DNA of 64,000 bases from a virus (lineage: Duplodnaviria > Caudoviricetes). Positions 3,273-63,692 of this stretch are shown piece by piece. Location of the stretch: IMG/VR virus record IMGVR_UViG_3300029288_000115, positions 1 through 64,000 of that record; one strand, 5' to 3'. Position 1 is the first letter of the stretch. The number at the start of each line of letters is the position of its first letter. Below the pieces are notes generated by a model. That model searched no databases and was not told where the DNA came from. It was given only the letters and a program-made list of their open reading frames with translations. The translations under genes and the position numbers were made by a program.

Positions 3273-6122
3273 TTAACTTACAATTACACTTTCCGCCATT
3301 TGACTTGAAAGCATAATAATTACCAAAACTCTAAGCTCGTAACCCGACGTTTTATCTACATCTGGAAAGGTTGAAGCTACCACCATCGTTGTATTATCAT
3401 TTAAAAATAAGCCTAACTCAGATAAGCCATCTTGAACAGTTCCGCTTGGAATGATAATTTCATATTCAACCCTATCATCATAAATTGCAATGGAATTAAT
3501 ATTGCCCTGTATTACCACATTTGCCAAATTAAAATTTGAATCATCAGGCGAAACTCCTTTATTTCCAATCCCAAGTTGATACTTAGTAATGGAATTCAAA
3601 AAACCAGCAAAACTTTGGTCAAAAAAACTCCCATCATCAAAATTCCATCCTAATCCAGAACCAACATAATCCATATCAAAATTGAGCTGTGCCCATACCC
3701 AATTTCCAGTAGTTATAGTTTTTACTAAAACATCTGTGGTATAAACTAAACCATCTTGATAGGTCAAACAATTCAATAATACTCTATAGTGCGGCACCGT
3801 ATTCACAGGTCTGATGCTTTCGACAAAATATATGGCGTCTGTTTCCATATCAGAGCTAAATAAATAAGCATCAGATCCATCATAATAAACTTTATCTAAT
3901 ACAACCTCATAACCAAAATGTGGTGACTTATAATAGCTCGCATCTAATCCTGGTGGGTTTTCTCCTTCATCACCAACAAACCATTCTTCTAAAACAAATG
4001 TAATATAATCCTTCGTATACATATCATAGATGTTCGTCGTAAATCCATGTGAGTGTGCTATAATTTGTAACGACTTATAAGTTCCCTTTATCTTATACCA
4101 ATCAACAACCTCTTGAACCTGCTTTCTTAAATCAATAATCGTTGTCTCTTCATGCTTAACCAACGTCAATCCTAATAATGCCGCTAAATAATCTATATAA
4201 GCCTCTCCAACCTTGTAAGGATCAAGAATGGTTAGCAAATCATCAATCTTTCCCAACCACGTTCCAACAGAAACTCCAATAGCCTGTAAAAACTCTTGTA
4301 AAAGAATAGACTCTCTAAACTTTTGTGGCACTAACTCTAATAAATCTATCCACTTTGCATAATCAGCAATCAGAGACATCTCACATTCTATAATTATTTC
4401 TCTAGACTCTAAAGCGGCATATCTAAAATTTGAGGGCTCTAAGGTAGCCAGGCCTTCAATAGATACAATTCTTTGGCTATCATCATCAAAATAATAGCCC
4501 TCATCAAAATTCCAAATACATAACGAGGCGTCTTCAAAATAAGCAATAGCCCCACTTTCAACTAAAAGCTTTACCTGAATAGATACTGGAGTAGCAACAC
4601 TTCGTCTAACTTCTAATAGTTGCCACTCTCCATTTCCATTATGATAATCCGAATATGAATTTCCATTCGTATCTGAAATGCAAATTCGTGCCGTATTCAT
4701 CGTGCTTGATTTAACCCAACATTGTAATGTAGTATCTCTATTACGAAACTGTGTCGGACTCAAAAGTGCTTGTACAACACTTCCATTAGGCGTTCCAGTA
4801 AGCTTTAAACTGCTTATTCCAAATTTAAAAATAGTATAGTCTTTTTCAACTGTTCCTGTAACTATCCAAGATAAAGGTATTTCAGCATCCCAGATATCAA
4901 AATTTCCATTTAATAATACACTCTCATCAAAATTTAAACCAAATAAATCATAGGACTTTGGTGGATATACAGAATGAGCATCAACAAATTCGCCAAACAA
5001 TCCACTATCAACTACTGCTTTAGATACTCTAGCGGTCTCAATTTCTACAATGGCCACATATCCATTACTTAACGCATCAGTATATGTGATACCAAAATAG
5101 TCATTTCCAACTCTCACAAATCCTGGAACTAAAAATATCTCTCCAGCCGGAAAATGTAAAGAATCTACTTCTCCTACTATCGTTCCATCGGCTTCTATCT
5201 TAATTACTTTTACATAACCGTCAGAAAGTGTACCAGCAGAGGCTAAAGCATAATACGTATTTGATACGGAATCAAGTATTGGCGGTCCAATTAAAATACC
5301 ACTAAAGGTATAAGTGTCAATAATACTGCCAATAGTTCCATCATCTTGAATCTCAATAGTACTAACAGCACTAAAAGGCCCCGTTCTATGCGAAAGAATA
5401 AAAATATTTCCATAATTGCTTCTAATAAAAGGTCCAGCAGGCAAAGTAGATATCACGGCCGTATCAACCAAACCAACAATTGTACCATTCGCTAATACTT
5501 CATAGGTCGAAAGACAAGCGCCTAAAGTAACAGAGTCCATATAATAGATTGCATAAATATTTCCAGAAACGGGCAAAATGGTTGCTCTTCGACCGTTAAC
5601 TGCAACAATCGTATCTATCGGTCCAGTAATTATTGTTCCATCATCACTAATGGAAACCGTCGCTAAAAATACCAATGGATTAAAAAAAACCAAAAACATA
5701 TTACTAGCTATTCTTGTCATAATAGGCTGGGTTGCATCACCAACGTATGGTAAAGTCATTTCAGCTTTAGCAATAAACGTAACAGTGCCTAACTCATCGA
5801 CATTATAGGTCTGTATAACCCCAATATTATAAGAAGGTCCAGTCAATGCGGCCACAGCATAAATATTTCCAGAAACTCTAACTCCAGACGTAACATTTTT
5901 TGTTAAATCCACGGGGTTATAAGTCTTAGCATTAGCCACATCAATTATGCCCGTTCTCTCTCCTATTGGAACAGTAATTATCTTGTCATTTACCCCAGTC
6001 TTATGTATAAATATAGCACATATTTCTGACACATCAATTTCCGAAAGCGATGCTACATAAGTTGTACCAAGGGCATCAAAGTTCCAAGTATTTATTATTC
6101 CTTTAATCTGTCCTTCAGCCAT
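3273..6122 (-). CDS. Baseplate wedge protein (P2 gpI / T4 gp7-like core) with N-terminal beta-repeats and a carbohydrate-binding-like domain
   Basis: LDP...YIDYLAALLG...WYKIKGT core; NGNFD..W..GEWQLL CBM-like segment; repeated xDGTIxGxxDT units. Confidence 0.6.
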   Translation of the reverse strand: MAEGQIKGIINTWNFDALGTTYVASLSEIDVSEICAIFIHKTGVNDKIITVPIGERTGIIDVANAKTYNPVDLTKNVTSGVRVSGNIYAVAALTGPSYNIGVIQTYNVDELGTVTFIAKAEMTLPYVGDATQPIMTRIASNMFLVFFNPLVFLATVSISDDGTIITGPIDTIVAVNGRRATILPVSGNIYAIYYMDSVTLGACLSTYEVLANGTIVGLVDTAVISTLPAGPFIRSNYGNIFILSHRTGPFSAVSTIEIQDDGTIGSIIDTYTFSGILIGPPILDSVSNTYYALASAGTLSDGYVKVIKIEADGTIVGEVDSLHFPAGEIFLVPGFVRVGNDYFGITYTDALSNGYVAIVEIETARVSKAVVDSGLFGEFVDAHSVYPPKSYDLFGLNFDESVLLNGNFDIWDAEIPLSWIVTGTVEKDYTIFKFGISSLKLTGTPNGSVVQALLSPTQFRNRDTTLQCWVKSSTMNTARICISDTNGNSYSDYHNGNGEWQLLEVRRSVATPVSIQVKLLVESGAIAYFEDASLCIWNFDEGYYFDDDSQRIVSIEGLATLEPSNFRYAALESREIIIECEMSLIADYAKWIDLLELVPQKFRESILLQEFLQAIGVSVGTWLGKIDDLLTILDPYKVGEAYIDYLAALLGLTLVKHEETTIIDLRKQVQEVVDWYKIKGTYKSLQIIAHSHGFTTNIYDMYTKDYITFVLEEWFVGDEGENPPGLDASYYKSPHFGYEVVLDKVYYDGSDAYLFSSDMETDAIYFVESIRPVNTVPHYRVLLNCLTYQDGLVYTTDVLVKTITTGNWVWAQLNFDMDYVGSGLGWNFDDGSFFDQSFAGFLNSITKYQLGIGNKGVSPDDSNFNLANVVIQGNINSIAIYDDRVEYEIIIPSGTVQDGLSELGLFLNDNTTMVVASTFPDVDKTSGYELRVLVIIMLSSQMAESVIVS

Positions 6123-25146: not shown

Positions 25147-26967
25147 TTACTTATTTTCTTCGTTATCTTCTTCTTCTTCTTCTTCTCCAGTCTCAGGTTC
25201 TTCTTTAGGCACCATTGTATTCTTTTTTAAATCGGCTTCCTTATCTTTTTTCTTCTTTAAGAACTCAGCCCCTCTAGCATATATTCCCCAAGACTTCTTA
25301 ATGGAAGCTTCTACTTTTTCAATATCCCTAGTATAAAAATGATTTAAAAAACTAGCCATCGTTGACACATACATTGGTAATACATCCATTACCAATTGCA
25401 AATGTTTACAATTATGCACAAATACTCCAGCCTCAAGTGGGAAATTATGATTCCTCTCCAGAGAAAGGTCATATACATCGGCTTTTTTTGCTAAAAACTC
25501 AACCTTAACTACCCTATGATTTAATACTTTAACAAATCTTCCATCTGAACTCCTCTTGATGCACAAGGCCTTCTTTCTTAGCTCTGCCCTCTTCAATGGT
25601 GAATTCATAATTTGCGAAATAGTTAAAGCCATTCTAGCAACGCTCTCAGAGGTCTCTTTTGTCTTGCCCCTAAAAAATCCAATATGCCCTAATTGAAAAC
25701 CGGGATTAAATTCCCCTCTTTTCACCCTACATATACAACACATACAACCTTCCTTATGATTCAAAGAGCAACCTCGCAACTTGTTGTACATCATCCTTAC
25801 CCTATCATCGGTTTCCTTTGTTAAACCTTTATTCCAAATCTTAAGCCTTCCATCAAGAAACTTCTTCTTTAACCTTAATCCCCGACAACGTAATCTCTCA
25901 TCCACCTCTTTTGTTAGTCCTTTACTCCAAATTCTATAATTCTTCTTTTTACCACGCATACTTGCCCCATGTAAATCAATATGTCTCTGCTTCACCATTC
26001 TTTGCAAATTACCGGGGTCATTGTTCAGCTTATCAAAATCTTTGTGGTGGTTAACCCAACCAGAAGGTAACGCTCCATCCATAAATTTGGCCACTAAACT
26101 ATGAATATATCTATATCTTCCATCATTTGGGCAATAAACTCTTTTGTAACCTTTCATATTATCTTGGTCCACCTTCTGATATAAAGGCATTAAACTATCT
26201 TGAAACTGTAGGTCTTTGGCTTCCTTGTAACTACCATCCCTAAGCATAAAAGCGTGGTCTGGGGTACAATCAACATACTTGCCATTGTCAAGATGCACCC
26301 GAACAAGCTGAGCATTAAGCCTTGTTTTCTGAACATCAACTATCTTATCGGGTTCTAACTGAAGTGTTTCTGGGTTAATTGAAAGTGTATACTTCCCCAC
26401 ATACTTATCCTTATTCTCTGCCATGTCCTTTATCGTAGGAACACCACCATCTAACAAAGAAACCCTTGTGTCACCAGCAAAACAATGCGCCCCATATTGT
26501 CTGGGATTTCTAATATCCGGGGGCCTGTTTTCAGGCTCAGTATACTTAGCATCTCTACGTGTTAAGATATAAGCCCCACCCCAATACAATTGCGCGGGGC
26601 AAGAGCAATTAATTTCTAAATCTGTAGCCATTAAAAGCTCTCTTCCAAGTTTTCTTAAATCAACTCCTTTATTGTCCTTTTTCCATAACCTTCTATCTCT
26701 AGCAAATCGAGAAATCTGACTTTCTAAATTTGTCCAATTCAAATATACGTCATACCATAAAGAATTCTTTGTACCTGAATGAACTTTAAAATGCCAAACG
26801 GCAGGTCTAACATCCTTTAATCTAACACCCCCTCTGCCTGCAACGGCGTCTACTCTATCATCAAATTCTGGGAATAAATAATTTATAGAAGCCTGCTTAC
26901 GCTTTATATCCTTATAGCCCATTTCATTTATGTTAATAAGACTTTCAATTAATCCCAAATTCAACAT
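25147..26967 (-). CDS. SWIM-type zinc-finger protein (about 248 aa after splicing) containing an intein
   Basis: CSCP...GAH|intein|CKHL gives a CxC..CxH signature. Confidence 0.7.
   Translation of the reverse strand: MLNLGLIESLININEMGYKDIKRKQASINYLFPEFDDRVDAVAGRGGVRLKDVRPAVWHFKVHSGTKNSLWYDVYLNWTNLESQISRFARDRRLWKKDNKGVDLRKLGRELLMATDLEINCSCPAQLYWGGAYILTRRDAKYTEPENRPPDIRNPRQYGAHCFAGDTRVSLLDGGVPTIKDMAENKDKYVGKYTLSINPETLQLEPDKIVDVQKTRLNAQLVRVHLDNGKYVDCTPDHAFMLRDGSYKEAKDLQFQDSLMPLYQKVDQDNMKGYKRVYCPNDGRYRYIHSLVAKFMDGALPSGWVNHHKDFDKLNNDPGNLQRMVKQRHIDLHGASMRGKKKNYRIWSKGLTKEVDERLRCRGLRLKKKFLDGRLKIWNKGLTKETDDRVRMMYNKLRGCSLNHKEGCMCCICRVKRGEFNPGFQLGHIGFFRGKTKETSESVARMALTISQIMNSPLKRAELRKKALCIKRSSDGRFVKVLNHRVVKVEFLAKKADVYDLSLERNHNFPLEAGVFVHNCKHLQLVMDVLPMYVSTMASFLNHFYTRDIEKVEASIKKSWGIYARGAEFLKKKKDKEADLKKNTMVPKEEPETGEEEEEEDNEENK
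25411..26484 (-). mobile_element. Intein (358 aa) with HNH homing endonuclease
   Basis: Starts CFAGDT; block B CTPDH; HHKDFDKLNN HNH; ends VYDL...HNF...VFVHN followed by Cys. Confidence 0.92.
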
Positions 26968-29553: not shown

Positions 29554-32500
29554 CTAAAGACCACTTATATCGCCATAGCAAAACATTCCGGGGTTGGTCA
29601 CTTTGAATCCAGACGCAGATAAGAAACCTTTCTGTGCGTGCAAATCAGAAGTGATTAAAGTCGGAGTTGCAAATAGCGGAATATCACCTTTGTTACTCTT
29701 GTCCAAAGACAAGGGCTTGGTCATTTCTGCCAAGCTCCCTATGTTGCCATAGGGGTCAGACTGTCCCATTAACTCTATTGAGTTATTCTGATTACAGTCG
29801 TTGAACCTTTCTTGTGTGTGAAATTTTAAAAGCTTTTCTTTTAGCTTTCCAATAGCACGTAATTCCTTTGACCAAACTACCAAACATTCCCAACCAAACT
29901 TTTGAAACATTTGTATTCTACTAATATCCGACCCGAGCTTATGATATTTTTCTCCAAATAACTCAATGAGTTTCTTATTCTTTAAATTTGCAAAATCGGG
30001 CGTTTTATTATCTATTACCACAACCTTCTCAACTACATTTAAAATATACTGTTGTGGTAGCATTTTTTGCAACGTCTTAAATAAAAATATCTCTGCTCCA
30101 TTAGGTCTTCTACTAGCAGATAATATTTGTTTCCTAACCACATCTGGTCTTTTCATGCTATTATTCTTTGATATTTTAGCTCTAACTTCGGGTCTCTTAG
30201 CAGGGTTCTTATTCCCACATAGAGAGGGAACACTTATTCCCATTCTACCTTTAGAGATTAAAGCTCCTCGAATCTTGTTCTTTGCAAGACTTTCTTTTAT
30301 CTTCTGTCTAACCTCTAATCTCTTAGCAGGATTTTTGTCTCCAACCATCTGTCCCTTATTAGAATGAGAATGGCCTTTTACATATAAATTATTTTTAAAA
30401 GCCACCCTCTTGCCACACCCACATTTACATAAGGGTGTACTTCCTACACAAGACTTGGCTGCGGATTGTCCACTTTCAGACTCCAAATCTCTCCAAATCT
30501 CTTTTAAAGAATATTTGGAAATCTTGCGGATGTTCCCGCAATTTACAGAATTTTCATTATCAGTCACCTGATAATGCCGCCTATTCTTATTCGACGGCGC
30601 ATAGATAAACCCAGCCATTAAATAACTGTCACCCTTGAAGCCTAAATAAATTCTATTCGTACTTACAAATGGGTCTTGAATTACAAGTCGTCCATCCAAA
30701 GTACCAATAACAGTAGGTCCAGTTGGGGCAACTTTCCCTAAAGACGAATCCGGCTTAAAATGTGGCTCTAACTGCCTTATAACACGAGCTCCATTATTAC
30801 CACAAATTATAAAGGTTGCCATAGCCCTTAAGGTCTTAGCGAAAATGTTGTTACTACCATACTCAAGTCTGTCAATCAACTCATACTTTTTCCATAACCA
30901 CTCCTGACCAGACCCAACCGTGGCACTCCATGTGCCAAAAGTCGTGGCAGCATTCACACCTTCCGCCGCAGCCGCAATTTGTTCTATCCCATAATGATCA
31001 CAATCTGTTACTTTTAAACCTATATTCCATAGGCGGGTAAGTAATTTCTTCTTACCTCTCTGTATTGCTACAGAGTTCAGACTATCTCTTCATCCATTCT
31101 GGATGGTTGCCGTAGCTTTCCGAGTCACCTCAGAAAACGTAGTCGTTACACCATTTCTGTAAAGGATATCTTCTGTCCAAATCTGAAACTGCATATTATA
31201 CTTCAAAGCATATGCTCTAGCAGCCTCAAACTTTAGAATATTAGATTTTTGATCCAATAGGCTTTTTGGTTTAACTTCAATTAAATATATTAAACCATTA
31301 TTTAAGACAACGAATAAATCGGGCAAATAACGATGAATACTTCCGTCCACTCCTTTATAGACAATTACTAAACTTTCAACAGAAACGCTTACCACATCTC
31401 TACAATCATCTATAAGCAATAAAGCACTCTTCTCATAAGTAGAACGATAATGATGAGTAGTTCCTAACCGGGGTAACATAACTATTCCAGATATCCCAGT
31501 ATAGGATTGGCCCTTATTCTTCAAAATTCTTTTTATAGCACCTTTACTCATATTATTTCTACCTTCTAAACTTGTAATAAGGCCTCTATTTCCTCCATTA
31601 TTACCACGAGCCTTTATTTTTGGATTATTCATTAAAGCCCTCTTAATTGACTGTCTTCTTTCTAAGCTTAAAGGAATTCCCATCAAAGATTTAGAAATCT
31701 TCTCTCTAACTTCTGGTCTCTTAGCAGGATTATTTTCGCCAGAATTACTTTTTCTAATAGCTTCATACCATCTATCGTTATTCTTCTGGCCTTTCCTATT
31801 ATGACCGGAAATAAATCGACGTAAAGAGTTAACTTTACACTCAAAGATTTCCCCACAACTGCATTGACAAAATCTTTGTTCCCTATCAACTCGCCACCAA
31901 TAGTTTCCTTTAACAGTCTGGCTCGGTATAGCCTTTTTCAAGGTGTCCACCGAATTAAGCAACTTTTTCATATTTACATTTCTATAAATCGGAGACCATT
32001 TATTAATCTCGAATTTGATTTCCCCACCAAGATACTTAATCAACTCATCTTCAAGAATCATCCCATGAGCTTTCTCCAAATCAATAGCCGCACCCATAGT
32101 GTATCTTGCACGAAGTGGAAAATCCAAAGCGGTAAGACTCTCAGAACTTAAATCCACATTCACTTCAGGTACACCATTAGTCGCCTTCTCATAATTATAC
32201 TGATAGTCAATAGTCGGGGCAATTGGTGTCGCAGATTCAAAAGTTACGTCAACCACACCAGTTGTGTAGACAATTGTGCCATTAGCACCCGTAGATGAAT
32301 CAGTTACCATATGTCCAGCACCATCATCGGTAAAGGTTTCTACTCCGTCAGTAACAACAGCTGTTCCCGCGATAACTGGAAAATATGTTAAGGTTCGAGT
32401 ATAGTGAGTCGAACCAGCAACTCCCATCGCTTCACCATATACCAATTCTGTTGCGAATCTACGAGAGGCCTGACTACCAGCATGACCCGTCTTAGCACCA

Positions 32501-32910
32501 ATTAAAACAGCGTTCTCGGCCAAAGAGCCTTTAGTCTGACCATATACCAGGTCAAGATAAAAGACAGACCCAACACGTCTATCAAGAGCCTGAACCACAG
32601 CGATATTATTCATAACCAAACTCGGCAATATTGCCGCAATAACTGGCAACTGAACGCCAAGAAAAGTTATATTATCCGCATAGGTCGTTTCAAAGATCTT
32701 ACTCTTTTGCCTCATTCCACCCTCGAGTAGGGCATTCTCCAAACACTGTGCTATGTTTCTTTTTTCATTCACAGATACTTCCCTATTCTCATTTTCCTTC
32801 ACATAGGTTTCAACTGCACCAAGGTAAGGACTCCAATCTTGCATCAGAAGATCTCTACGCTCATTAATAGCCATCAAACGCTTCTCAACTACTTGGTTAA
32901 GTTTACTCAT
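29554..32910 (-). CDS. Major capsid protein (gp23-like), spliced from exons 32910-32006, 31000-30594 and 29684-29554; 480 aa
   Basis: Joining the exons restores EIKFEI-DHYG and FIYAP-YIPL, the conserved gp23-type motifs; total 1443 nt in frame. Confidence 0.9.
29685..30593 (-). mobile_element. Group I intron 2 (909 nt) encoding a NUMOD3-like plus Vsr/DUF559-like endonuclease
   Basis: Exon GCCGU pairs with IGS GCGGC (U-G at the splice site); P AAUUGCGGGAA; Q AAUCCGCAGCCAAG; P7 GACUG/CAGUC; terminal G. Confidence 0.9.
31001..32005 (-). mobile_element. Group I intron 1 (1005 nt) encoding a NUMOD3-like plus TnsA-like PD-(D/E)XK endonuclease in frame with exon 1 (stop at 31090)
   Basis: Exon GAGAU pairs with IGS GUCUC; R AACGACUA; S AAGAGAUAGUC; terminal G; YRSTYE...YLPDL...IEVKP. 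Confidence 0.9.
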
Positions 32911-32937: not shown

Positions 32938-35706
32938 TTATTTGCGACGTCCCATAAGGTGGTAGATTAAATTAAGAATCCTCTCCTCTTCCTTACTAGG
33001 GGCGTCTCTATCCGTTCCGACTTTTACCTCGGATAAGCTGTCAAAGTGTAACGAACTTTCTCTTAAAGCGTCTCGGAACCTTTCAATCAATTCTCCAGCC
33101 TCCTCTTCAGAAGAGCTTTGTTCGAGTAGTGCTCGAACTCTTTCTGATAGATTCAGTCCAGAGAATTCTAGTTTACATTCTATAAACTTTTTAATTAGTT
33201 CTTTCTTATGTTGTTCTTCTGCTTTATCTAAATTAGTTTTTAATAGTATTATATCATTATCTTTAGCCACCAAGGATTCAGAAAGCTTCTTTATTTCTTC
33301 TTTACTGGAAGCCTCAATTTCGTCTAATTGGGTCTTTGACTGATCTAAAAGGTCTTGGTACTCTTTCAACTTTACTGTCATTTCTGCCTCAAATTCATCG
33401 CCTTCTTTATTTAATATGTCATTCTTCTCATTCAAAGTTACCATATCATTAGCATAATTTCTCAAAGTCTCATTATATAACTCTTCCAATTTGACTAAAG
33501 ATTCGCTAGCAATAGCCTCATTAATCTTTAAACTGGTTATTAGCTTTCTTGTCGCAGAAAACGATTTATTCTCTTCAGCAAATCTTTTCTTACTCTCACC
33601 TAATAAACCACGTTTACCCATCTCGTCCTCCAACCACATAAGATATATTACATCCCTTCCACCAAAAGCTTTATCATCGCCAACTATTTTATCATAAGTA
33701 TTATATAACTCCTCTAAGTCCTCATTTGAAAGCCCAATAATGTCTTTTCTAGATAACTGCTCATTTAAAATCTTAAGGCCTTTATCTTTAGTAAATCTTA
33801 TTAAATTAGAATAAATAGTCTCTTCATCTTTTCCTATTTGATCGGCTATAAATTTTTCTGCCTCATCTAAAGGAACTTGTAATTGTGCAATAAGCCTCTT
33901 GCTGGCCAAAGACCGCTTTGATTCATCTAATAGGTCATCAACAGTAAGTGCAGCTAAAGCTCGTAACTGCTCACTTAAAATATGTCCTTTAATAAGCTCT
34001 TTAGTGCCCACACGCTTACTACTTTCGAAGTTTATTCCACCAGCAGACTTTGGTCCAAGTCCTAACTTATATTGTAAATAATTGTCAAGACGACCTAAAA
34101 GTTCATATTGCCCAAATCTCTTTTTACCTAAAAACTTTAACACGGCCTTCTCAAATTTCTCAAAATTCTCTCCCCCATCCAACCAATCCCAATAATCCCG
34201 ACCAGAAAGCTTTATTCCAGTCTTTTTACTCAAAGAAGAAGCCATTTTCTCAAAATATAACTTCTCTTCATCTGATAGGCTACTATAATTTTTATCTTCC
34301 TTGGGGTTTGGTTTGCCTTTCTTAGACTCTTTGATTACGCCAAGGCTCTCAGAGGGTTTCTTTGACTCTCCTAATAGGCTTCTAGCCTTATCATCAATGA
34401 CTACTTTCATATCCTCTGTAGGCTCTATCCTCTCACCCGAGGCATTTTCTACGCCCTCAATTTGAATATCATCAATAAATGTTCTGGTTTCACCAGGCTC
34501 TCCTTCCGGTCCTTCACCATAACGAGTGTCAATATGATATGTCACGTAAACCTCAGCCTTATAGGGCGTCAATAAAGTCTCTCCAGGACTTTCTATATCT
34601 GGCTCTTCCATCTCAAAATCAATAGTCATATACTTATCATAATGGTCTACTCTTTCCTTCAAAGTTTCTTTCTTCTTTGTCTTCTTATTAACATCTTTCA
34701 AATCATCCGCACCCGTTTCCTTAGCAGATCGAAGTTTATACTTTCCAGATCTATTATCCTCTAAAGCCTTATGCTCATATTGAGGATTCGTCTTTTTAAA
34801 GTCACTAAACACTTGCTCATAATTTTCTGAACCAAAGGATTTTTTGTTATTATAACACCATTGCAAAAAAGCCTCAATCTCATCTATTTCATCTATATAG
34901 AGTTCTTCTTGAATCATCGGCAAAAGTTCTTCAGGATTTAATGTTCCAAGACTTCCTGCTGCCTGTTTGATAAGCAAATAATTTCTATCACCTAATAGCT
35001 TCATTTCTTTTATGACTTTATTCTCCTCTTTTTCCTTCTTAATGTTTTCCAAGACAACCTTTGCATCATTACATTTTAAGGATTCTAATATACATATGGC
35101 ATACTTCGAATCAATTTTATTTGATTCCAAACCATTCTTAACTATGCCAACAATATCTCTTTCAACTCTAGCAGGATACACACCAACAGTACTTGGATCA
35201 GCAGTAAAATCAGTCGTTATATACTTATAAGATTCTGGAATGACCTTAAAGTGCTTTCCTAATACTTCATCCTCAGCTTCTTCTAATTCACCTTCGGCAC
35301 GCGTAGAAACTCCAGCCTGACAACCCGCCAATAATAAAGTATTTACTATTCTTCCATAAGGAGTATCCAAAATATCATACTCCTGCATAACCTTCTTTCC
35401 ATCTTCAGTTATCCACATCTTTGTAATTGTATGAGACACCTTCTCAAGATTACTTTGTACGTCATCCTTAGGGTGCTCTGCATGACCAAATAGAGTTCTA
35501 CTTACCATCTTCTCTTGGAGCTCAGTATTTTCCAAAACCTTATCCCAAACCGCACGTTCATAAACCCTTTTATTTGCATTCAACATTCCAATATTACAAA
35601 TGGGGTAACTTACACGACATAACACTCCTGTAGGAAGCTTTGAAGCGTCGCTTTCTACAAGCATAAACTTTCCATCGATTCGTTCATTTAAGTTCTTTAA
35701 AGACAT
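32938..35706 (-). CDS. Prohead protease (gp21-like) fused to internal domains and a C-terminal scaffold-like coiled coil
   Basis: NANKRVY, GHAEHP, VSH, GVSTRAEG, DFTADPS within the first ~180 aa; coiled-coil C-terminus; directly upstream of the capsid gene. Confidence 0.85.
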   Translation of the reverse strand: MSLKNLNERIDGKFMLVESDASKLPTGVLCRVSYPICNIGMLNANKRVYERAVWDKVLENTELQEKMVSRTLFGHAEHPKDDVQSNLEKVSHTITKMWITEDGKKVMQEYDILDTPYGRIVNTLLLAGCQAGVSTRAEGELEEAEDEVLGKHFKVIPESYKYITTDFTADPSTVGVYPARVERDIVGIVKNGLESNKIDSKYAICILESLKCNDAKVVLENIKKEKEENKVIKEMKLLGDRNYLLIKQAAGSLGTLNPEELLPMIQEELYIDEIDEIEAFLQWCYNNKKSFGSENYEQVFSDFKKTNPQYEHKALEDNRSGKYKLRSAKETGADDLKDVNKKTKKKETLKERVDHYDKYMTIDFEMEEPDIESPGETLLTPYKAEVYVTYHIDTRYGEGPEGEPGETRTFIDDIQIEGVENASGERIEPTEDMKVVIDDKARSLLGESKKPSESLGVIKESKKGKPNPKEDKNYSSLSDEEKLYFEKMASSLSKKTGIKLSGRDYWDWLDGGENFEKFEKAVLKFLGKKRFGQYELLGRLDNYLQYKLGLGPKSAGGINFESSKRVGTKELIKGHILSEQLRALAALTVDDLLDESKRSLASKRLIAQLQVPLDEAEKFIADQIGKDEETIYSNLIRFTKDKGLKILNEQLSRKDIIGLSNEDLEELYNTYDKIVGDDKAFGGRDVIYLMWLEDEMGKRGLLGESKKRFAEENKSFSATRKLITSLKINEAIASESLVKLEELYNETLRNYANDMVTLNEKNDILNKEGDEFEAEMTVKLKEYQDLLDQSKTQLDEIEASSKEEIKKLSESLVAKDNDIILLKTNLDKAEEQHKKELIKKFIECKLEFSGLNLSERVRALLEQSSSEEEAGELIERFRDALRESSLHFDSLSEVKVGTDRDAPSKEEERILNLIYHLMGRRK

Positions 35707-42307: not shown

Positions 42308-45043
42308 TTATTTCTTTCCTCGGTCGTTTTTGGCTACGGTTGCAACCATCTGCCGAGTTTTCTTATCAAATGCGATTTTAGTATTTTTGTATCGACTTTC
42401 CCATAAATTATTTAGGGCCCTTTGCCTGTTTTTCTTACCTTCTTTTATTGAGGACTTTATCCTGTCTATGGGCAAAAGAGCCTTTAAATCTGTATTCATA
42501 AGGGCGCGATGGGCCTCCGCAATTATATGCTTCTTCTCCAAAGGTATCTGCTTATCCACGGCTTTTAACATCTGATTAAGGTCAAAATCCTCTAACTTTA
42601 AAATCTTATCATTAAAATATTTTAATAGTTTTAAACGATCCACATTTGGTCCTATAGTGTCAACCACCAAATCTACTAAATCCTTAACAACGGTAACCTC
42701 CTTTTCTAAAGTTAATGATAACTCTTCTTCTTCTGCAGAAGATGTTTCTGACATATTAACTTGAAAAGTTTTTGGATCTGGGTCTAAACCCATATACGCT
42801 AAATGAATCTGACATAGACGTGTCTGCGTGTCGATTAAAGCCCTTTGTACCCGACGAGCCTCTCTAGCAAATCTAATATCATAGCGCTCTATTGCGGATC
42901 GGCCAATACCTTGTGGCATCTCTTCAACATATCCCCCTAATAACTGTAAAGGGGTCTTTAAGGCACAAGCTAACTGGTTTCTCTGCTCTGTTAAATCAGC
43001 TATAAATCTAATATCGGTTTCGCCACCAAGTTTTTCTATGGCTATATTATTAACATCTCCAAATACCGGTAATATAATATCTTCATTTACCCCCAAAGGC
43101 GAGTTATGCACAAATACTCCAGCTTTTAATGGAAAATTATGATTACGTTCTGTAGTAATGTCATAAGTGTCTTCTTTAAAATTTAGCCTCTCCACCCTTA
43201 CTACTTTGTGATTTAAAGCTCCTACAAACCTTCCAAGCTCATCTCTTATCCTACTTGGTACATTCCTCAGAGAATAACGTCTTCCTGTAAGAGCTCTTAT
43301 TTGATTCTCTCTATACTTAGGTTGCGCCCACAAACCTTTTAGATTCTCACTCTGCATAGTAGCAAAAGCTTCCTTATCTGTATACAGCCTTTTATTCTTC
43401 TGTTTTGAACCAAGCTTACATCCCATCTTGCCTTTTACTTTAGTTCTAAACTCTAAAGTTGCCCAGCGATCTTTTGCCCTCTTGGAAATACTTTGTCCCT
43501 TTTCGGCTCTTTCCTCTTCTGAATAGCCTAACCATCTCTCTTTCCCTAACTTAGAATGATATCTCCAATGCTCATTATTTCCCATAAGCTTAAGATTACT
43601 AGGGTCATTATTTTCTTTATCAAAATCTATGTGATGTATAGTATCCCCTTTCTTTAGCTTGCCGTAAACATACTTTCCTACTAGTCTATGCTCATGGCAA
43701 AATAGATTACTACAGGGATTATACACCAATCTATACCCCACCAGACCCTTAATGGCTACCTTCGAATAATAAGGCATTAAAGACTCTCCTCCTACTAGAT
43801 TCTCTGCCTTCTTAAACTCTCCATTACGAAGCATAAAAGGGTGGTCTGGGGTGCAATCGATATACTTACCATTGTCAAGATGCACCCGAACAAGCTGAGC
43901 ATTAAGCCTTGTTTTCTGAACTTGAATTATCTTATCTGGTTCTAACTGCAAGGTCTTTGAGTTTACAGAAAGTATATATAGACCTTTATACGTCTCAGGG
44001 CTCTCTGCCATTTCCTTTATGCAAGGCTCTTCTCCATTTAACAAAATTAACTGCATATTCCCTCTCAAACAGTATTTTTCATCATAATAGGGTGAGTCAG
44101 CGTCTAAGGAAATAGCTCTAGCCCTCTGTAGTAAAGTCTTATATTCATCTATCATGTCAATAACGGCCTCACTATTCGTATTATCCACCTGTACCTTATA
44201 CAAATACCTTAAAATACCTTTGGATAATCTGGCGAGCATAATTGAGTCTTCCGTTAATCGAAGGCGTTTATAAATTGGCATAGCATTGGTAAGTACAGAG
44301 GTTCCATAGCGAGAAGTAACTCTGCGAGTATCCGGTGCCATAATGTTTACAGTGGTATACTCGATATAGGTGGGGTCATCGGCTTGAGGCCTTTTCTTCT
44401 TAGCTCCTAATATCCTACAATGCACGTAGTCCCAAGGGGGAAGTAGTTTTCTGCTTCTTCCCAGGGTTGCTCCTAAAGGTGTCTCAAAAAATCCTATAAG
44501 ACGACCATTATAATCCAATCGACTAATGTTCAAGGGATGATTATCATCATCAACCGCTACCACCCCCGTTCCAGGCATTCCATCAATCTTTATGAATAAA
44601 TCACCATACGCCGCCGTTGTCCAAGCCCAATCAAAAATTCTTTCTTCTATCCCAATTCGGTCCAATAGCTTTGTTAACTCATTCTGTACTTTTCTATTCT
44701 GAGATGTAACCCAAACCGTTGCACCGTGAAGCTTAGAATAGGTTGTTGCCACCCCGGCAAATAAATCTACAGCTGCTCCCATCAATGGATGTAAAATAGC
44801 TCTATCCACCTCTTTATAGAAACCACCCCGATCCATGCTCACTTGGGTGTTCTTATAGATCATTCGAGTTAAATCTTGTGGGGCTATACCAAGTCTTTTA
44901 AATGTAGCTAAGTCATCAGGGGACAACTTGGATAACATCTGAACATCTTCGGCGGGGACTTCAGTGGGAGCTCTTCCTAATCCAATCTTTAATAGTAAAT
45001 TCTTAACGTTCGTTGCTATACTCAAAGGCGTCCTTTCATTCAA
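42308..45043 (-). CDS. Portal protein (gp20-like, about 588 aa after splicing) containing an intein
   Basis: RLTEDSIMLARL...EDIILP...IEKLGG...ALKTP...DIRFAR. Confidence 0.85.
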   Translation of the reverse strand: MNERTPLSIATNVKNLLLKIGLGRAPTEVPAEDVQMLSKLSPDDLATFKRLGIAPQDLTRMIYKNTQVSMDRGGFYKEVDRAILHPLMGAAVDLFAGVATTYSKLHGATVWVTSQNRKVQNELTKLLDRIGIEERIFDWAWTTAAYGDLFIKIDGMPGTGVVAVDDDNHPLNISRLDYNGRLIGFFETPLGATLGRSRKLLPPWDYVHCRILGAKKKRPQADDPTYIEYTTVNIMAPDTRRVTSRYGTSVLTNAMPIYKRLRLTEDSIMLARLSKGILRYLYKVQVDNTNSEAVIDMIDEYKTLLQRARAISLDADSPYYDEKYCLRGNMQLILLNGEEPCIKEMAESPETYKGLYILSVNSKTLQLEPDKIIQVQKTRLNAQLVRVHLDNGKYIDCTPDHPFMLRNGEFKKAENLVGGESLMPYYSKVAIKGLVGYRLVYNPCSNLFCHEHRLVGKYVYGKLKKGDTIHHIDFDKENNDPSNLKLMGNNEHWRYHSKLGKERWLGYSEEERAEKGQSISKRAKDRWATLEFRTKVKGKMGCKLGSKQKNKRLYTDKEAFATMQSENLKGLWAQPKYRENQIRALTGRRYSLRNVPSRIRDELGRFVGALNHKVVRVERLNFKEDTYDITTERNHNFPLKAGVFVHNSPLGVNEDIILPVFGDVNNIAIEKLGGETDIRFIADLTEQRNQLACALKTPLQLLGGYVEEMPQGIGRSAIERYDIRFAREARRVQRALIDTQTRLCQIHLAYMGLDPDPKTFQVNMSETSSAEEEELSLTLEKEVTVVKDLVDLVVDTIGPNVDRLKLLKYFNDKILKLEDFDLNQMLKAVDKQIPLEKKHIIAEAHRALMNTDLKALLPIDRIKSSIKEGKKNRQRALNNLWESRYKNTKIAFDKKTRQMVATVAKNDRGKK
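43103..44071 (-). mobile_element. Intein (323 aa) with HNH endonuclease
   Basis: Starts CLRG; CTPDH; HHIDFDKENN; ends TYDI...HNF...VFVHN followed by Ser. Confidence 0.92.
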
Positions 45044-61287: not shown

Positions 61288-61938
61288 TTACTCAATTATG
61301 AAATTAGATACAAAATGTGCTCCAGCATTCTTCATCTCAACTATTGCTGCTTTAGCCGCTTTAGCCTCAACCCCGCGAATCATAGACTCAATTACCGAAA
61401 CTTTATAACCATATTTAAGAAAGCCTAAAACCGCAGCCTTCACACAATACTCCGTCGCAACTCCAAATATATAAACGTCTGAAACATTAAATTGCTCATT
61501 TGCAAGTTTTAAAGCATCTATCAACAGAGGATTTGTAAAAACATCAAACGTTTGCTTTTCAAAAAATACTGGAAGCCAATCCGTTGTTAGCCCCAAAGGT
61601 CCCACAAGCTCCACGGGATTAGTACTGATAGACCTAAAGACAGAAATATTTTGATATATCTCATCAATAAGACTTACTCCCATCGTTCCGCGTATACAAT
61701 GTGGTGGAAACCTTTTAAACTCTGGGTCATTATGCATATGATAATCCATTGAACCCCAAAGAGGTATTCCGTTCTCTCTAGCGTGCCGCACCAACATAGC
61801 AATACCGGTCTTTATCTTCCTTGCTCCAGGGACATAAAGGGAACCACTTGGATTCATAAAGTCATTTTGTACATCTACAGCAAAAAACATTTTCATACTA
61901 ATTCCCCACTTTCCTTCTATATAAATTACCAGCGGCAT
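61288..61938 (-). CDS. pncA: Nicotinamidase (isochorismatase family)
   Basis: VDVQNDF..GSL...DYH...PPHC..GT.G...K...GVATEYCV. Confidence 0.88.
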   Translation of the reverse strand: MPLVIYIEGKWGISMKMFFAVDVQNDFMNPSGSLYVPGARKIKTGIAMLVRHARENGIPLWGSMDYHMHNDPEFKRFPPHCIRGTMGVSLIDEIYQNISVFRSISTNPVELVGPLGLTTDWLPVFFEKQTFDVFTNPLLIDALKLANEQFNVSDVYIFGVATEYCVKAAVLGFLKYGYKVSVIESMIRGVEAKAAKAAIVEMKNAGAHFVSNFIIE

Positions 61939-62302
61939 AAGCCTTCTCTGTTTCCCAAACTTTTACTTCCAAACCAGTCCAATCAACATTCTGCACAGCA
62001 AACTCCATAGATAATTGATTTAAAAATTCTTCTACCAAATTTTCGGCGGTGGGTATCCCCTCAAAAACGTTATTGAGATTATGATGATCATATTTTCTAA
62101 GAATAGATTTTATTACTTCAAAATTAACAATCATACCGGTCTCATTGTTCACTTCTCCTTCAATATCAACTTCAATTTTAAAATTATGCCCATGCACATC
62201 CTCATAACATTTCCCAAAGGTGTTTTTATTCCACCTCCCATCTTTCTCTGGATTGTATAGCCTATGTGCAATAGCTATAGTATCTTCTAAATGTATTTTC
62301 AT
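61898..62302 (-). CDS. queD: 6-carboxytetrahydropterin synthase
   Basis: AHRL...C...HGHN...DH..LN...PTAEN...WET. Confidence 0.88.
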   Translation of the reverse strand: MKIHLEDTIAIAHRLYNPEKDGRWNKNTFGKCYEDVHGHNFKIEVDIEGEVNNETGMIVNFEVIKSILRKYDHHNLNNVFEGIPTAENLVEEFLNQLSMEFAVQNVDWTGLEVKVWETEKAYAAGNLYRRKVGN

Positions 62303-62889
62303 TCTCTACCTCCTGCTAATAACTTAGGATTCACATAAGATTTAAACTTCTTATCACACGTAGGAATTAATTCAATATCACTGTCTACTTCGTTTCCCCA
62401 AGCATCCCAACCTTCTATTTTTTGTCTTGCAAATAATTCTATTCTTGGTTCTAACCGCGTCATCTCTATAATTGTTCTAGCATAGTCAGGCTTTTGAGAA
62501 TGTACTCTAGCCACATCCTTAAAATAATTAGGAATTTGTAAACCAAAAGCCTTAACCTCTCCTTTCACACCTAACCATAACTCTTCAATCACACCTCTAA
62601 ACCAAAACCCCATTCCTAATCTACCCATCTTTCTCCAATATATTTTTGTTTTATACGTATAACCCCAAGCCTTCATAACCTCCATAGCCTCTTCTTGCAT
62701 TGGGCATGTTACCCATAGAAATAACACAGAATTATTACTCATAATATTCTGAATTGGTAAAGACATAATCTGCTCAAGAGTCATTGTAGAATAACCTAAC
62801 TCATATTTATGATTATAAGACCATGGGGGATCAGCATAAACCACTTTATATTTCTTATATTTATCGACACCATTCTCAGTAACCATCAA
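62299..62889 (-). CDS. MT-A70-family adenine methyltransferase
   Basis: ADPPW, LFLW, WG..Y, HSQKP, IELFAR, GWDAWGNE. Confidence 0.9.
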   Translation of the reverse strand: MMVTENGVDKYKKYKVVYADPPWSYNHKYELGYSTMTLEQIMSLPIQNIMSNNSVLFLWVTCPMQEEAMEVMKAWGYTYKTKIYWRKMGRLGMGFWFRGVIEELWLGVKGEVKAFGLQIPNYFKDVARVHSQKPDYARTIIEMTRLEPRIELFARQKIEGWDAWGNEVDSDIELIPTCDKKFKSYVNPKLLAGGRE

Positions 62890-63018
62890 TATCTTCTACC
62901 TCATACTCATTACCACAACGCAAACATTTATAATACGATTCACACTCAAAAATATCTACTAACTCTAATTCTCCAGTACAATCTGGGCAATATTTCATTC
63001 TACCTCCAAGTTTAAAAC

Positions 63019-63249
63019 CAACCTCGGCGGGATTCGAACCCGCTACGATTTTTTAAGGATGTCTCGTAACATCTGCTGTCTAGGTCCACTCGAGATTTGC
63101 CAATTAAATCTAGTACATTCCTGACCCCAAAGCTGTAAGTCTTATAGCTGTAGATCGCGGCATTTCGTTTTGACATACGAAAGAGAAATGTATGCGCTCC
63201 ATATTTAACATCCCAAATTTTCCACGGTGTTCCCAGCCACCACAAGGTT
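63019..63249 (-). ncRNA. tRNA-like RNA with a ~160-nt internal domain in place of the anticodon arm
   Basis: Acceptor AACCUUG/CGAGGUU; T-arm GCGGG-UUCGAAU-CCCGC; D-like arm GGUG-GCUGGGAA-CACC. Confidence 0.65.
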
Positions 63250-63284
63250 AGCAATAACAATAGAGTTTAGTTTATTTTTATTTG

Positions 63285-63692
63285 CTAATTGCCAATGGGT
63301 ATCGCTAATCCAGCATAAACGCCATACATCCAAGCATCATTACTATCATCAAAATCTCTTGCACCAAAAACCCCACCGCTAGTATATTTCAATAACTGCC
63401 AATCAATTCCAAAATATTCCGCAACTTTCTTGGCATCTACAGATAGTCCCAACAAGGGTAAAGTCTCAGTACTATCACCAATCACGCCAGCCTCTAAACT
63501 TAAAACCTTATAAGATACTATTGGTATAGTACCCCCAGCGTAAGTTTTCTCACTGTTAAAGTCATAAAATATGGCAGCTTTAAGTTCAGTAAAGCCAGTT
63601 TCAAGTCGTATCTCTTCACAAAAACCCTTTCCAGAAAAGATACATAAGCCAATCACCATAACCAATATCGGTAAATAGACTTTTAACTTCAT
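63285..63692 (-). CDS. Exported protein, possibly a small outer-membrane beta-barrel
   Basis: Signal peptide MKLKVYLPILVMVIGLCIFS; alternating hydrophobic strands. Confidence 0.45.
   Translation of the reverse strand: MKLKVYLPILVMVIGLCIFSGKGFCEEIRLETGFTELKAAIFYDFNSEKTYAGGTIPIVSYKVLSLEAGVIGDSTETLPLLGLSVDAKKVAEYFGIDWQLLKYTSGGVFGARDFDDSNDAWMYGVYAGLAIPIGN

Follow-up and report, generated by a model that had tools for sequence, protein, structure and literature searches.

Genomic context of the element

The element analyzed here, which we call E1, occupies positions 63019-63249 on the minus strand of the window, that is, of the whole stretch of 64,000 nucleotides that was analyzed and that corresponds to bases 1-64000 of a 96,162-bp IMG/VR phage record (67% complete according to CheckV). 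This contig has a G+C content of 36%, and essentially all of its genes are carried by the minus strand. The presence of sheath, baseplate, portal and terminase genes showed that it belongs to a tailed phage, and the identity of its SbcCD-type nuclease (25%) and of its PurZ-like enzyme (at most 35%) to those of cultured phages pointed to a distant kinship only. The same phage was found, base for base where it was covered, in a landfill DNA run, which is its probable source, and, in another study, in a groundwater run, at low depth, and no variants of E1 were seen in these runs.

E1 and a second copy, E2, each occupy, on the coding strand, the gap between two genes and end 15 to 45 nt before the strong ribosome-binding site of the next gene. 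For E1, this is the GGAGG site of the gene at positions 62876-62998, located within 15 nt of the 3' side of the element. A consensus scan revealed neither a sigma-70-type promoter nor a terminator flanking E1 or E2, and no defense or anti-defense gene was linked to them.

The gene for a PurZ-like adenylosuccinate synthetase homologue, which is short (383 aa), lies between E1 and E2 at positions 65197-66348 of the contig, minus strand (1197-2348 of L082, a locus of the same contig). Its relatives in metagenomes number in the thousands, with 50-60% identity. As this gene is located among genes for an MT-A70 methylase, a QueD-like protein, a radical-SAM (QueE-like) protein and a phosphoribosyltransferase (window 61898-62889; L082 5715-6356), the gene content suggests that several DNA base modifications are made by the phage. 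A 320-aa open reading frame (ORF) at about 94100-95060 of the contig (minus strand) matched the Rnl2-type RNA ligase family with 49 bits, while neither RtcB nor a CCA-adding enzyme was found in the contig. Elsewhere in the window, the 911-aa portal ORF (42308-45043, minus strand) contains an HNH endonuclease domain between its two portal halves (residues about 448-590, positions about 43273-43702), and an HNH domain is also internal to a 606-aa ORF (25147-26967, minus strand). Both may be inteins or mobile elements inserted in frame. Another 606-aa ORF (31090-32910, minus strand) is an unusual fusion, with an N-terminal half resembling a major head protein and a C-terminal end resembling a head-closure protein.

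A tRNA-like frame encloses the element

The two ends of E1 form an acceptor stem made of AACCUUG (63243-63249) and CGAGGUU (63020-63026), in which seven of seven positions are paired, one of them as G-U. This stem stacks on a 5-bp T-stem, giving the standard 12-bp minihelix of a tRNA. The three bases of the 5' leader, G, C and U (63250-63252), pair with the 3' side (U63250-G63019, C63251-G63018 and G63252-U63017) and lengthen the helix to 10 bp; a uridine at position -1 is the base preferred by bacterial RNase P. The T-arm, GCGGG/UUCGAAU/CCCGC (63027-63043), has five G-C or C-G pairs and a canonical T-loop, and the D-arm, GGUG/GCUGGGAA/CACC (63226-63241), has four Watson-Crick pairs. The GG required for the elbow contact is present in the D-loop. 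This D-arm is not fully canonical, as a single unpaired U (63242) connects it to the acceptor instead of two bases and the first position of its loop is a G instead of an A. The discriminator is a G (63019), followed by the 3' trailer GUUUUAAAC (discriminator and trailer span 63010-63019), and position 3:70 is a C-G pair and not a G-U pair. Reading of the sequence, with a script for the pairs, thus agreed with the original prediction as to the 7-bp acceptor extendable to 10 bp, the canonical T-arm, the D-like arm, the absence of a G3-U70 pair and the absence of an encoded CCA.

When the 96-kb contig was scanned for spans of 100-450 nt that combine a 7-bp acceptor with a D-arm and a T-arm, three matches were obtained: E1, E2 and a weak one. 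Forty dinucleotide shuffles gave 0.3 matches on average, and a decoy with a reversed acceptor gave none. The tRNA frame of E1 is thus far above chance and real. The fold of the whole element had a z-score of -1.73.

The insert of E1

The anticodon arm and the variable loop are replaced in E1 by an insert of 182 nt (63044-63225, minus strand). The original prediction had drawn in it a long helix, a helix GCAUAC/GUAUGU enclosed by it, and two hairpins. The strands of the long helix, GGGAUGUU (63207-63214) and GACAUCCU (63056-63063), can form eight pairs, two of them G-U, and the GCAUAC/GUAUGU and AGAUUU/AAAUCU segments are complementary as well, but the energy model disfavored the fold as a whole (-39.1 kcal/mol, versus -58.4 kcal/mol for the minimum when the frame is enforced). 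Enforcing the long helix together with the frame gave -54.9 kcal/mol, a cost of about 3.5 kcal/mol. The minimum-energy folds contain a predicted local hairpin with a tetraloop, GAUGUU-ACGA-GACAUC (63056-63073), in which GAUGUU (63073-63068) is a competing partner of GACAUC; since the 3' strand of this hairpin overlaps GACAUCCU, the local hairpin and the long helix are mutually exclusive. The proposed hairpin AGCU.UAAG/CUUA.AGCU could be kept in part only, because pairing of UAAG with CUUA would leave a loop of one nucleotide; at most UAA and UUA can pair.

When folded alone, the insert of E1 did no better than its shuffled versions (z of +0.39). It had no match in Rfam up to E = 10 and no similarity to the insert of E2 or to any of the fetched loci, and its complementarity to the phage genome, searched for antisense targets, never exceeded 12 nt, which is the level expected by chance. 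Two ORFs overlapping the insert, of 30 codons (63113-63202) and 82 codons, have neither a ribosome-binding site nor a Pfam match, which rules out a protein gene; the non-coding strand of this contig is rich in spurious ORFs of at least 100 codons.

A second copy with compensatory changes

E2 (166 nt, minus strand) is located outside the window at positions 67985-68150 of the contig (L082 3985-4150), 4.7 kb upstream of E1, and its insert is 116 nt long. Comparison of the two elements showed that a 9-nt stretch of the D-loop (GCUGGGAAC) and a 13-nt stretch of the T-loop (GGGUUCGAAUCCC) are identical. The acceptor helix of E2 (GGGGCUCUG/CAGAGCCCU) has 9 bp and is fully paired, and it differs from that of E1 at most positions on both strands; the T-stem pair 50:64 is A-U in E2 and C-G in E1. 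The element was duplicated, and the changes in its helices are compensatory. Both copies have the 12-bp stack of acceptor and T-stem plus one wobble pair, U-G in E1 and G-U in E2. The weak points of E2 are a mismatch in the D-stem and a T-stem of four pairs only. Its position 3:70 is a G-C pair, its sole G-U pair being at the end of the stem, and CCA is not encoded. Because the pairing of the acceptor was kept through changes on both strands and the loops of the elbow are identical in two copies, these sequences indicate selection on the tRNA shape.

The discriminator of E2 is a U followed by CUUUUAAUG, and UUUUAA is found two bases past the discriminator in both elements (window 63010-63018; L082 about 3975-3984). 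This common trailer may be a 3'-processing signal. The two inserts are unrelated in sequence, and that of E2 folded better than its shuffles (z of -2.95). The 5' half of E2 is identical at 21 of 25 positions to 5' halves of bacterial tRNA-Ala(GGC), with the G-U pair moved off position 3:70 and the D-stem of the tRNA-Ala(GGC) register broken.

Tests against known RNA classes

ARAGORN at default settings found no tRNA or tmRNA in the window or in the whole contig, and thus no ordinary tRNA gene in the 96 kb that represent 67% of this genome. A search of Rfam, tmRNA and Y RNA models included, gave nothing for E1 at the gathering scores. When hits up to E = 10 were considered, the tmRNA model RF00023 matched only the 17-nt T-arm of E1 with 15.8 bits, the cut-off being 47. 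No tmRNA was detected by ARAGORN when its threshold was lowered either, and the model of permuted tmRNAs (RF04321) had no match at E1. The absence of alanine identity that had been predicted was borne out, as the identity pair is missing from both elements (3:70 is C-G in E1 and G-C in E2). The suggestion that E1 could be a degenerate tmRNA did not hold in view of the absence of G3:U70, of the negative ARAGORN search and of an Rfam match limited to the T-arm.

The predicted absence of a group I core was also confirmed, since no Rfam match to such a core was obtained up to E = 10 on positions 62800-63500, and no group I intron or other ribozyme was matched around E2 up to the same E value. E2 likewise matched neither tmRNA nor Y RNA nor any further family of Rfam. 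The smallest group I introns have roughly 200 nt, and the inserts considered here (116-182 nt) are shorter. The Rfam Y RNA model (YrlA) had no match and no Ro60 (TROVE) domain was found in the contig; in YrlA, the ends of the RNA are not known to lie within the acceptor-like stem.

The acceptor, D-arm and T-arm of E1 follow each other in cloverleaf order, as in a canonical tRNA. The Rfam tRNA model nevertheless had no match on E1, and an exhaustive check, in which offsets of 0-3 nt and variable regions of 3-6 or 9-25 nt were allowed, showed that neither E1 nor E2 allows an anticodon stem with five of five pairs to be placed next to its D and T arms. Such a stem was obtained by chance in 26-40% of shuffled inserts. 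When introns were allowed, ARAGORN interpreted E1 as a tRNA-Ala(AGC) interrupted by a 137-nt intron, but this model has a mismatched stem of four pairs, shifted away from the D-arm, and a "variable" region of 25 unpaired nucleotides. E2 was called by the same program only when the threshold was lowered, and with another isotype than E1. The idea of a tRNA with an unusual intron fails because no 5-bp anticodon stem is possible at this place, and E1 is probably not a spliced tRNA. Nor did E1 probably arise when a tRNA gene suffered a simple insertion, as its halves have no remnants of an anticodon stem. A decoy for anticodon nucleases, also put forward by the original prediction, is unlikely since E1 has no anticodon stem-loop to be cut. 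What remained of that prediction is its core, a putative tRNA-like non-coding RNA gene with a long insert at the place of the anticodon arm: the frame was confirmed and no anticodon stem is present.

Search for relatives and PurZ-linked loci

No match to the DNA of the region was found among 50,697 phage records, and exact patterns of the D-loop and T-loop revealed no orthologue of E1 or E2 in IMG/VR and genomes. A pattern scan of metagenomes yielded no orthologue among the matches listed, at least 119 in number. In all three collections, the matches were ordinary tRNAs or a D-loop-like 9-mer paired by chance with a neighboring tRNA. The neighboring genes led to no orthologue either: the SbcCD fusion gene has one distant relative and the 135-aa ORF located upstream has no relatives. 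No look-alike of E1 or E2 was present in 80 MT-A70 loci.

A sample of 80 phage loci (1.28 Mb in total) was collected through homologues of the PurZ-like protein. A strict scan of these loci, from which spans holding an ordinary tRNA were left out, gave 22 matches to oversize tRNA-shaped genes (17 distinct ones, of 102-235 nt) versus one with the decoy, and ARAGORN in its intron mode flagged the same genes. About ten of them have no anticodon stem, as is the case for E1 and E2, and many of these ten have a leucine-type D-arm, which is found neither in E1 nor in E2. Two long tRNAs of L132 (13048-13163 and 13533-13622) have an intact anticodon stem and an anticodon loop enlarged by 19-44 bases; they reached 56 and 48 bits with the Rfam tRNA model, and no ribozyme match was found in them.

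Other arrangements were observed in these loci. Four oversize tRNA-shaped genes form a tandem array in L170 (15431-16620), and two adjoining ones, of 176 and 340 nt, are located at 3160-3678 of L111 (4251-4769 of L112). One hairpin motif (AGUAGUGA...GUUACUUC) is present four times in the L111 inserts and looks like a repeated protein-binding site. L100 contains, within a tRNA cluster (4621-5009), a match of 60.5 bits to the permuted, two-piece type of tmRNA (RF04321). E1 had no homology beyond the T-arm to the elements of similar length in L091 and L100, and no recurring gene was found downstream of the oversize tRNA-like genes of the related loci.

Proposed role of the elements and alternative explanations

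We consider it rather likely that E1 is the gene of a non-decoding, tRNA-shaped RNA, which tRNA-processing enzymes of the host would excise and stabilize and of which the insert would be the payload. E1 and E2 would be co-transcribed with the neighboring genes of the same strand. The minihelix of acceptor and T-arm and the elbow of D-loop and T-loop would offer the shape recognized by the host RNase P, by RNase Z or 3' exonucleases, and by the CCA-adding enzyme. Since the top half is shaped for these enzymes, the RNA would be cut from the transcript and, its ends being closed as in a tRNA, would be shielded from degradation. The payload would be the insert of 182 nt in E1 and of 116 nt in E2, and without an anticodon arm the RNA would be unable to read codons. 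The likeliest targets would be an insert-binding protein, of the host or of the phage, or else a factor with affinity for tRNA top halves. From a structured payload one would not expect what the energy model gave for the insert of E1, namely no excess of folding. That E1 and E2 are transcribed, processed, stable and active in any way is deduced here from the DNA.

Alternatively, the RNAs could act as a decoy or sponge. Their top half would titrate a host factor with affinity for tRNA acceptor ends or elbows, for example a defense toxin by which the 3' ends of tRNAs are modified or cleaved. Such a role concerns function and is compatible with the explanation given above. It has in its favor that the top half is the sole part common to E1 and E2 and that neither element has features useful in translation, and reports exist of phage tRNAs that neutralize tRNA-targeting defense and of effectors that cleave tRNA tails (PMC11464382 and PMC12851939). 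We judge it unlikely, as no defense or anti-defense gene is linked to the elements, anticodon nucleases are excluded as the target by the lack of an anticodon loop, and inserts of 116 and 182 nt would be dead weight if the top half alone mattered. The inserts are left unexplained as well if the elements are cis-acting processing signals, in which a site for RNase P and RNase Z would part the upstream and downstream mRNAs (tRNA punctuation) and the excised RNA would have no role. A plain tRNA-like minihelix would suffice for this, and the annotation of the phage T5 counterparts has them accumulating as stable RNAs. The location in coding-strand gaps, 15-45 nt ahead of a strong ribosome-binding site, and the lack of a promoter or terminator of their own are what such signals would show, and we regard this explanation as quite unlikely.

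Loss of function was weighed in the same way. E1 and E2 could be relics of tRNA genes with an overwritten or disrupted middle part and no present function; the resemblance of the 5' half of E2 to tRNA-Ala(GGC), whose D-stem is broken and whose G3:U70 is lost, points in this direction, as do the unremarkable folding of the E1 insert and the failure to find orthologues. Decay would, however, break first the very features that were kept, namely full acceptor pairing in two copies despite changes on both strands, the D- and T-loops and the trailer motif. Phage genomes rarely retain 400 nt of junk, and the identical phage was present in landfill and groundwater samples; decay is thus very unlikely. 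The chance that E1 is an insert-bearing tRNA, which would become a decoding tRNA once its intron is removed (a proposal made for the "enigmatic introns" of Lak megaphage tRNAs) and its halves are joined, possibly by the Rnl2-like ligase, seems remote. The intron call of ARAGORN for E1, the Rnl2-family ligase encoded in the contig, the long tRNAs of related loci that keep their anticodon stem around an insert of 19-44 nt and score as tRNAs in Rfam, and the introns reported in phage tRNAs (Devoto et al. 2019, PMC6784885) would fit this possibility. The offset and mismatched stem of the ARAGORN model, the need for a lowered threshold and a different isotype for E2, the absence of a 5/5 anticodon stem from both elements and the absence of a ribozyme match and of RtcB count against it. 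A reduced tmRNA, whose tRNA-like domain and messenger part would rescue stalled ribosomes, is already close to refuted. The tRNA-like ends, the possible long helix at the place of the anticodon arm, the 30-codon ORF of the E1 insert, a 17-codon frame of E2 starting with GCU and the presence of real tmRNAs in related phage loci had spoken for it. The 3:70 pairs, the negative result of ARAGORN at either threshold, the match to the T-arm only, the permuted model that matches L100 and not E1, the real D-stem and putative tags that end unlike degradation tags all stand against it.

A more specialized possibility, to which we give little credence, is that E1 and E2 are dedicated mimics of the top half of tRNAs, serving either as a sponge for host immune effectors directed against tRNAs at their 3' end or elbow, or as a carrier of an amino acid for a non-ribosomal purpose, for example DNA hypermodification. 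If this were true, the inserts would bar the RNAs from entering translation. E1 and E2 are surrounded by DNA-modification genes (MT-A70, QueD/QueE-like and PurZ-like).

Comparison with known systems

The annotation of phage T5 (NC_005859) contains two genes, RNA2 (32959-33083, 125 nt) and RNA1 (30501-30644, 144 nt), described as "tRNA-like stable RNA with unknown functions". In RNA2, the acceptor has 8 bp and the D-stem 4 bp, with GAUGGGGA as the D-loop; the insert measures about 75 nt, and UUCGAAU is found in the T-arm. The build of RNA1 is similar. One set of rules picked both E1 and RNA2. In the T5 RNAs as in E1, the acceptor closes the whole molecule (with 8 bp in RNA2, and also in E1 when its U-G pair is counted), the D-stem has 4 bp and its loop is rich in G (GAUGGGGA in RNA2 and GCUGGGAA in E1), the T-loop UUCGAAU is carried by a stem of 5 bp with an A directly before it, and an anticodon arm is lacking. 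The differences are that the inserts have about 75-85 nt in T5 instead of 182 nt (E1) and 116 nt (E2), that the T5 genes are inside a tRNA cluster while the contig of E1 and E2 has no ordinary tRNA, and that RNA1, unlike E1 and E2, has a leucine-type D-arm. Sequence similarity between T5 and E1 is limited to the generic T-arm. The T5 RNAs accumulate as stable RNAs according to the annotation. No RNA run containing the DNA of E1 was found. The claim that E1 is of an undescribed type falls, since RNA1 and RNA2 were already annotated and RNA2 is found by the very rules that find E1.

The species 1 RNA of phage T4 (rnaC, NC_000866 70908-71046, 139 nt), a small stable phage RNA that is kept across T4-like phages, has a T-arm identical to that of E1 at 15 of 15 positions. 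Its 5' and 3' ends pair in an acceptor-like manner, as in E1, with about 100 nt between them. Unlike E1, it has two U-U mismatches in the acceptor and no recognizable D-arm, and it adjoins the T4 tRNA genes. No paper was found in the literature on this class of RNAs or giving the T5 and T4 RNAs a function.

The likeness of E1 to tmRNA lies in the tRNA-like ends, in the large domain replacing the anticodon arm and in the possible long helix leaving the tRNA-like domain. E1 differs from it by the absence of G3:U70, by a true D-stem, by the lack of a pattern of pseudoknots and tag ORF and by the absence of any ARAGORN or Rfam match to the class. In the engineered "tRNA scaffold", a cargo RNA replaces the anticodon arm, and the cell processes and protects the chimera as it does a tRNA. 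This scaffold is man-made, and by analogy E1 and E2 might work likewise. The tRNAs of Lak megaphages carry "enigmatic introns" (Devoto et al. 2019, PMC6784885); like E1 and E2, they are over-long genes of tRNA type from uncultured phages, and their inserts could be matched to no family of introns, but an assignable anticodon is described for them (PMC6784885), whereas E1 and E2 have no anticodon stem.

As its layout is the same as that of the tRNA-like stable RNAs of T5 and T4, E1 appears to be a real RNA gene but not a new kind of one. The presence of two such genes in a distant phage, together with the many found in phages that share the PurZ-like gene, suggests that the design may be a widespread phage device, in which a tRNA frame gets an arbitrary RNA processed and protected, and not a curiosity of two coliphages. 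To the class known from T5 and T4, E1 and E2 add a data point and a variant of the frame that is not leucine-like.
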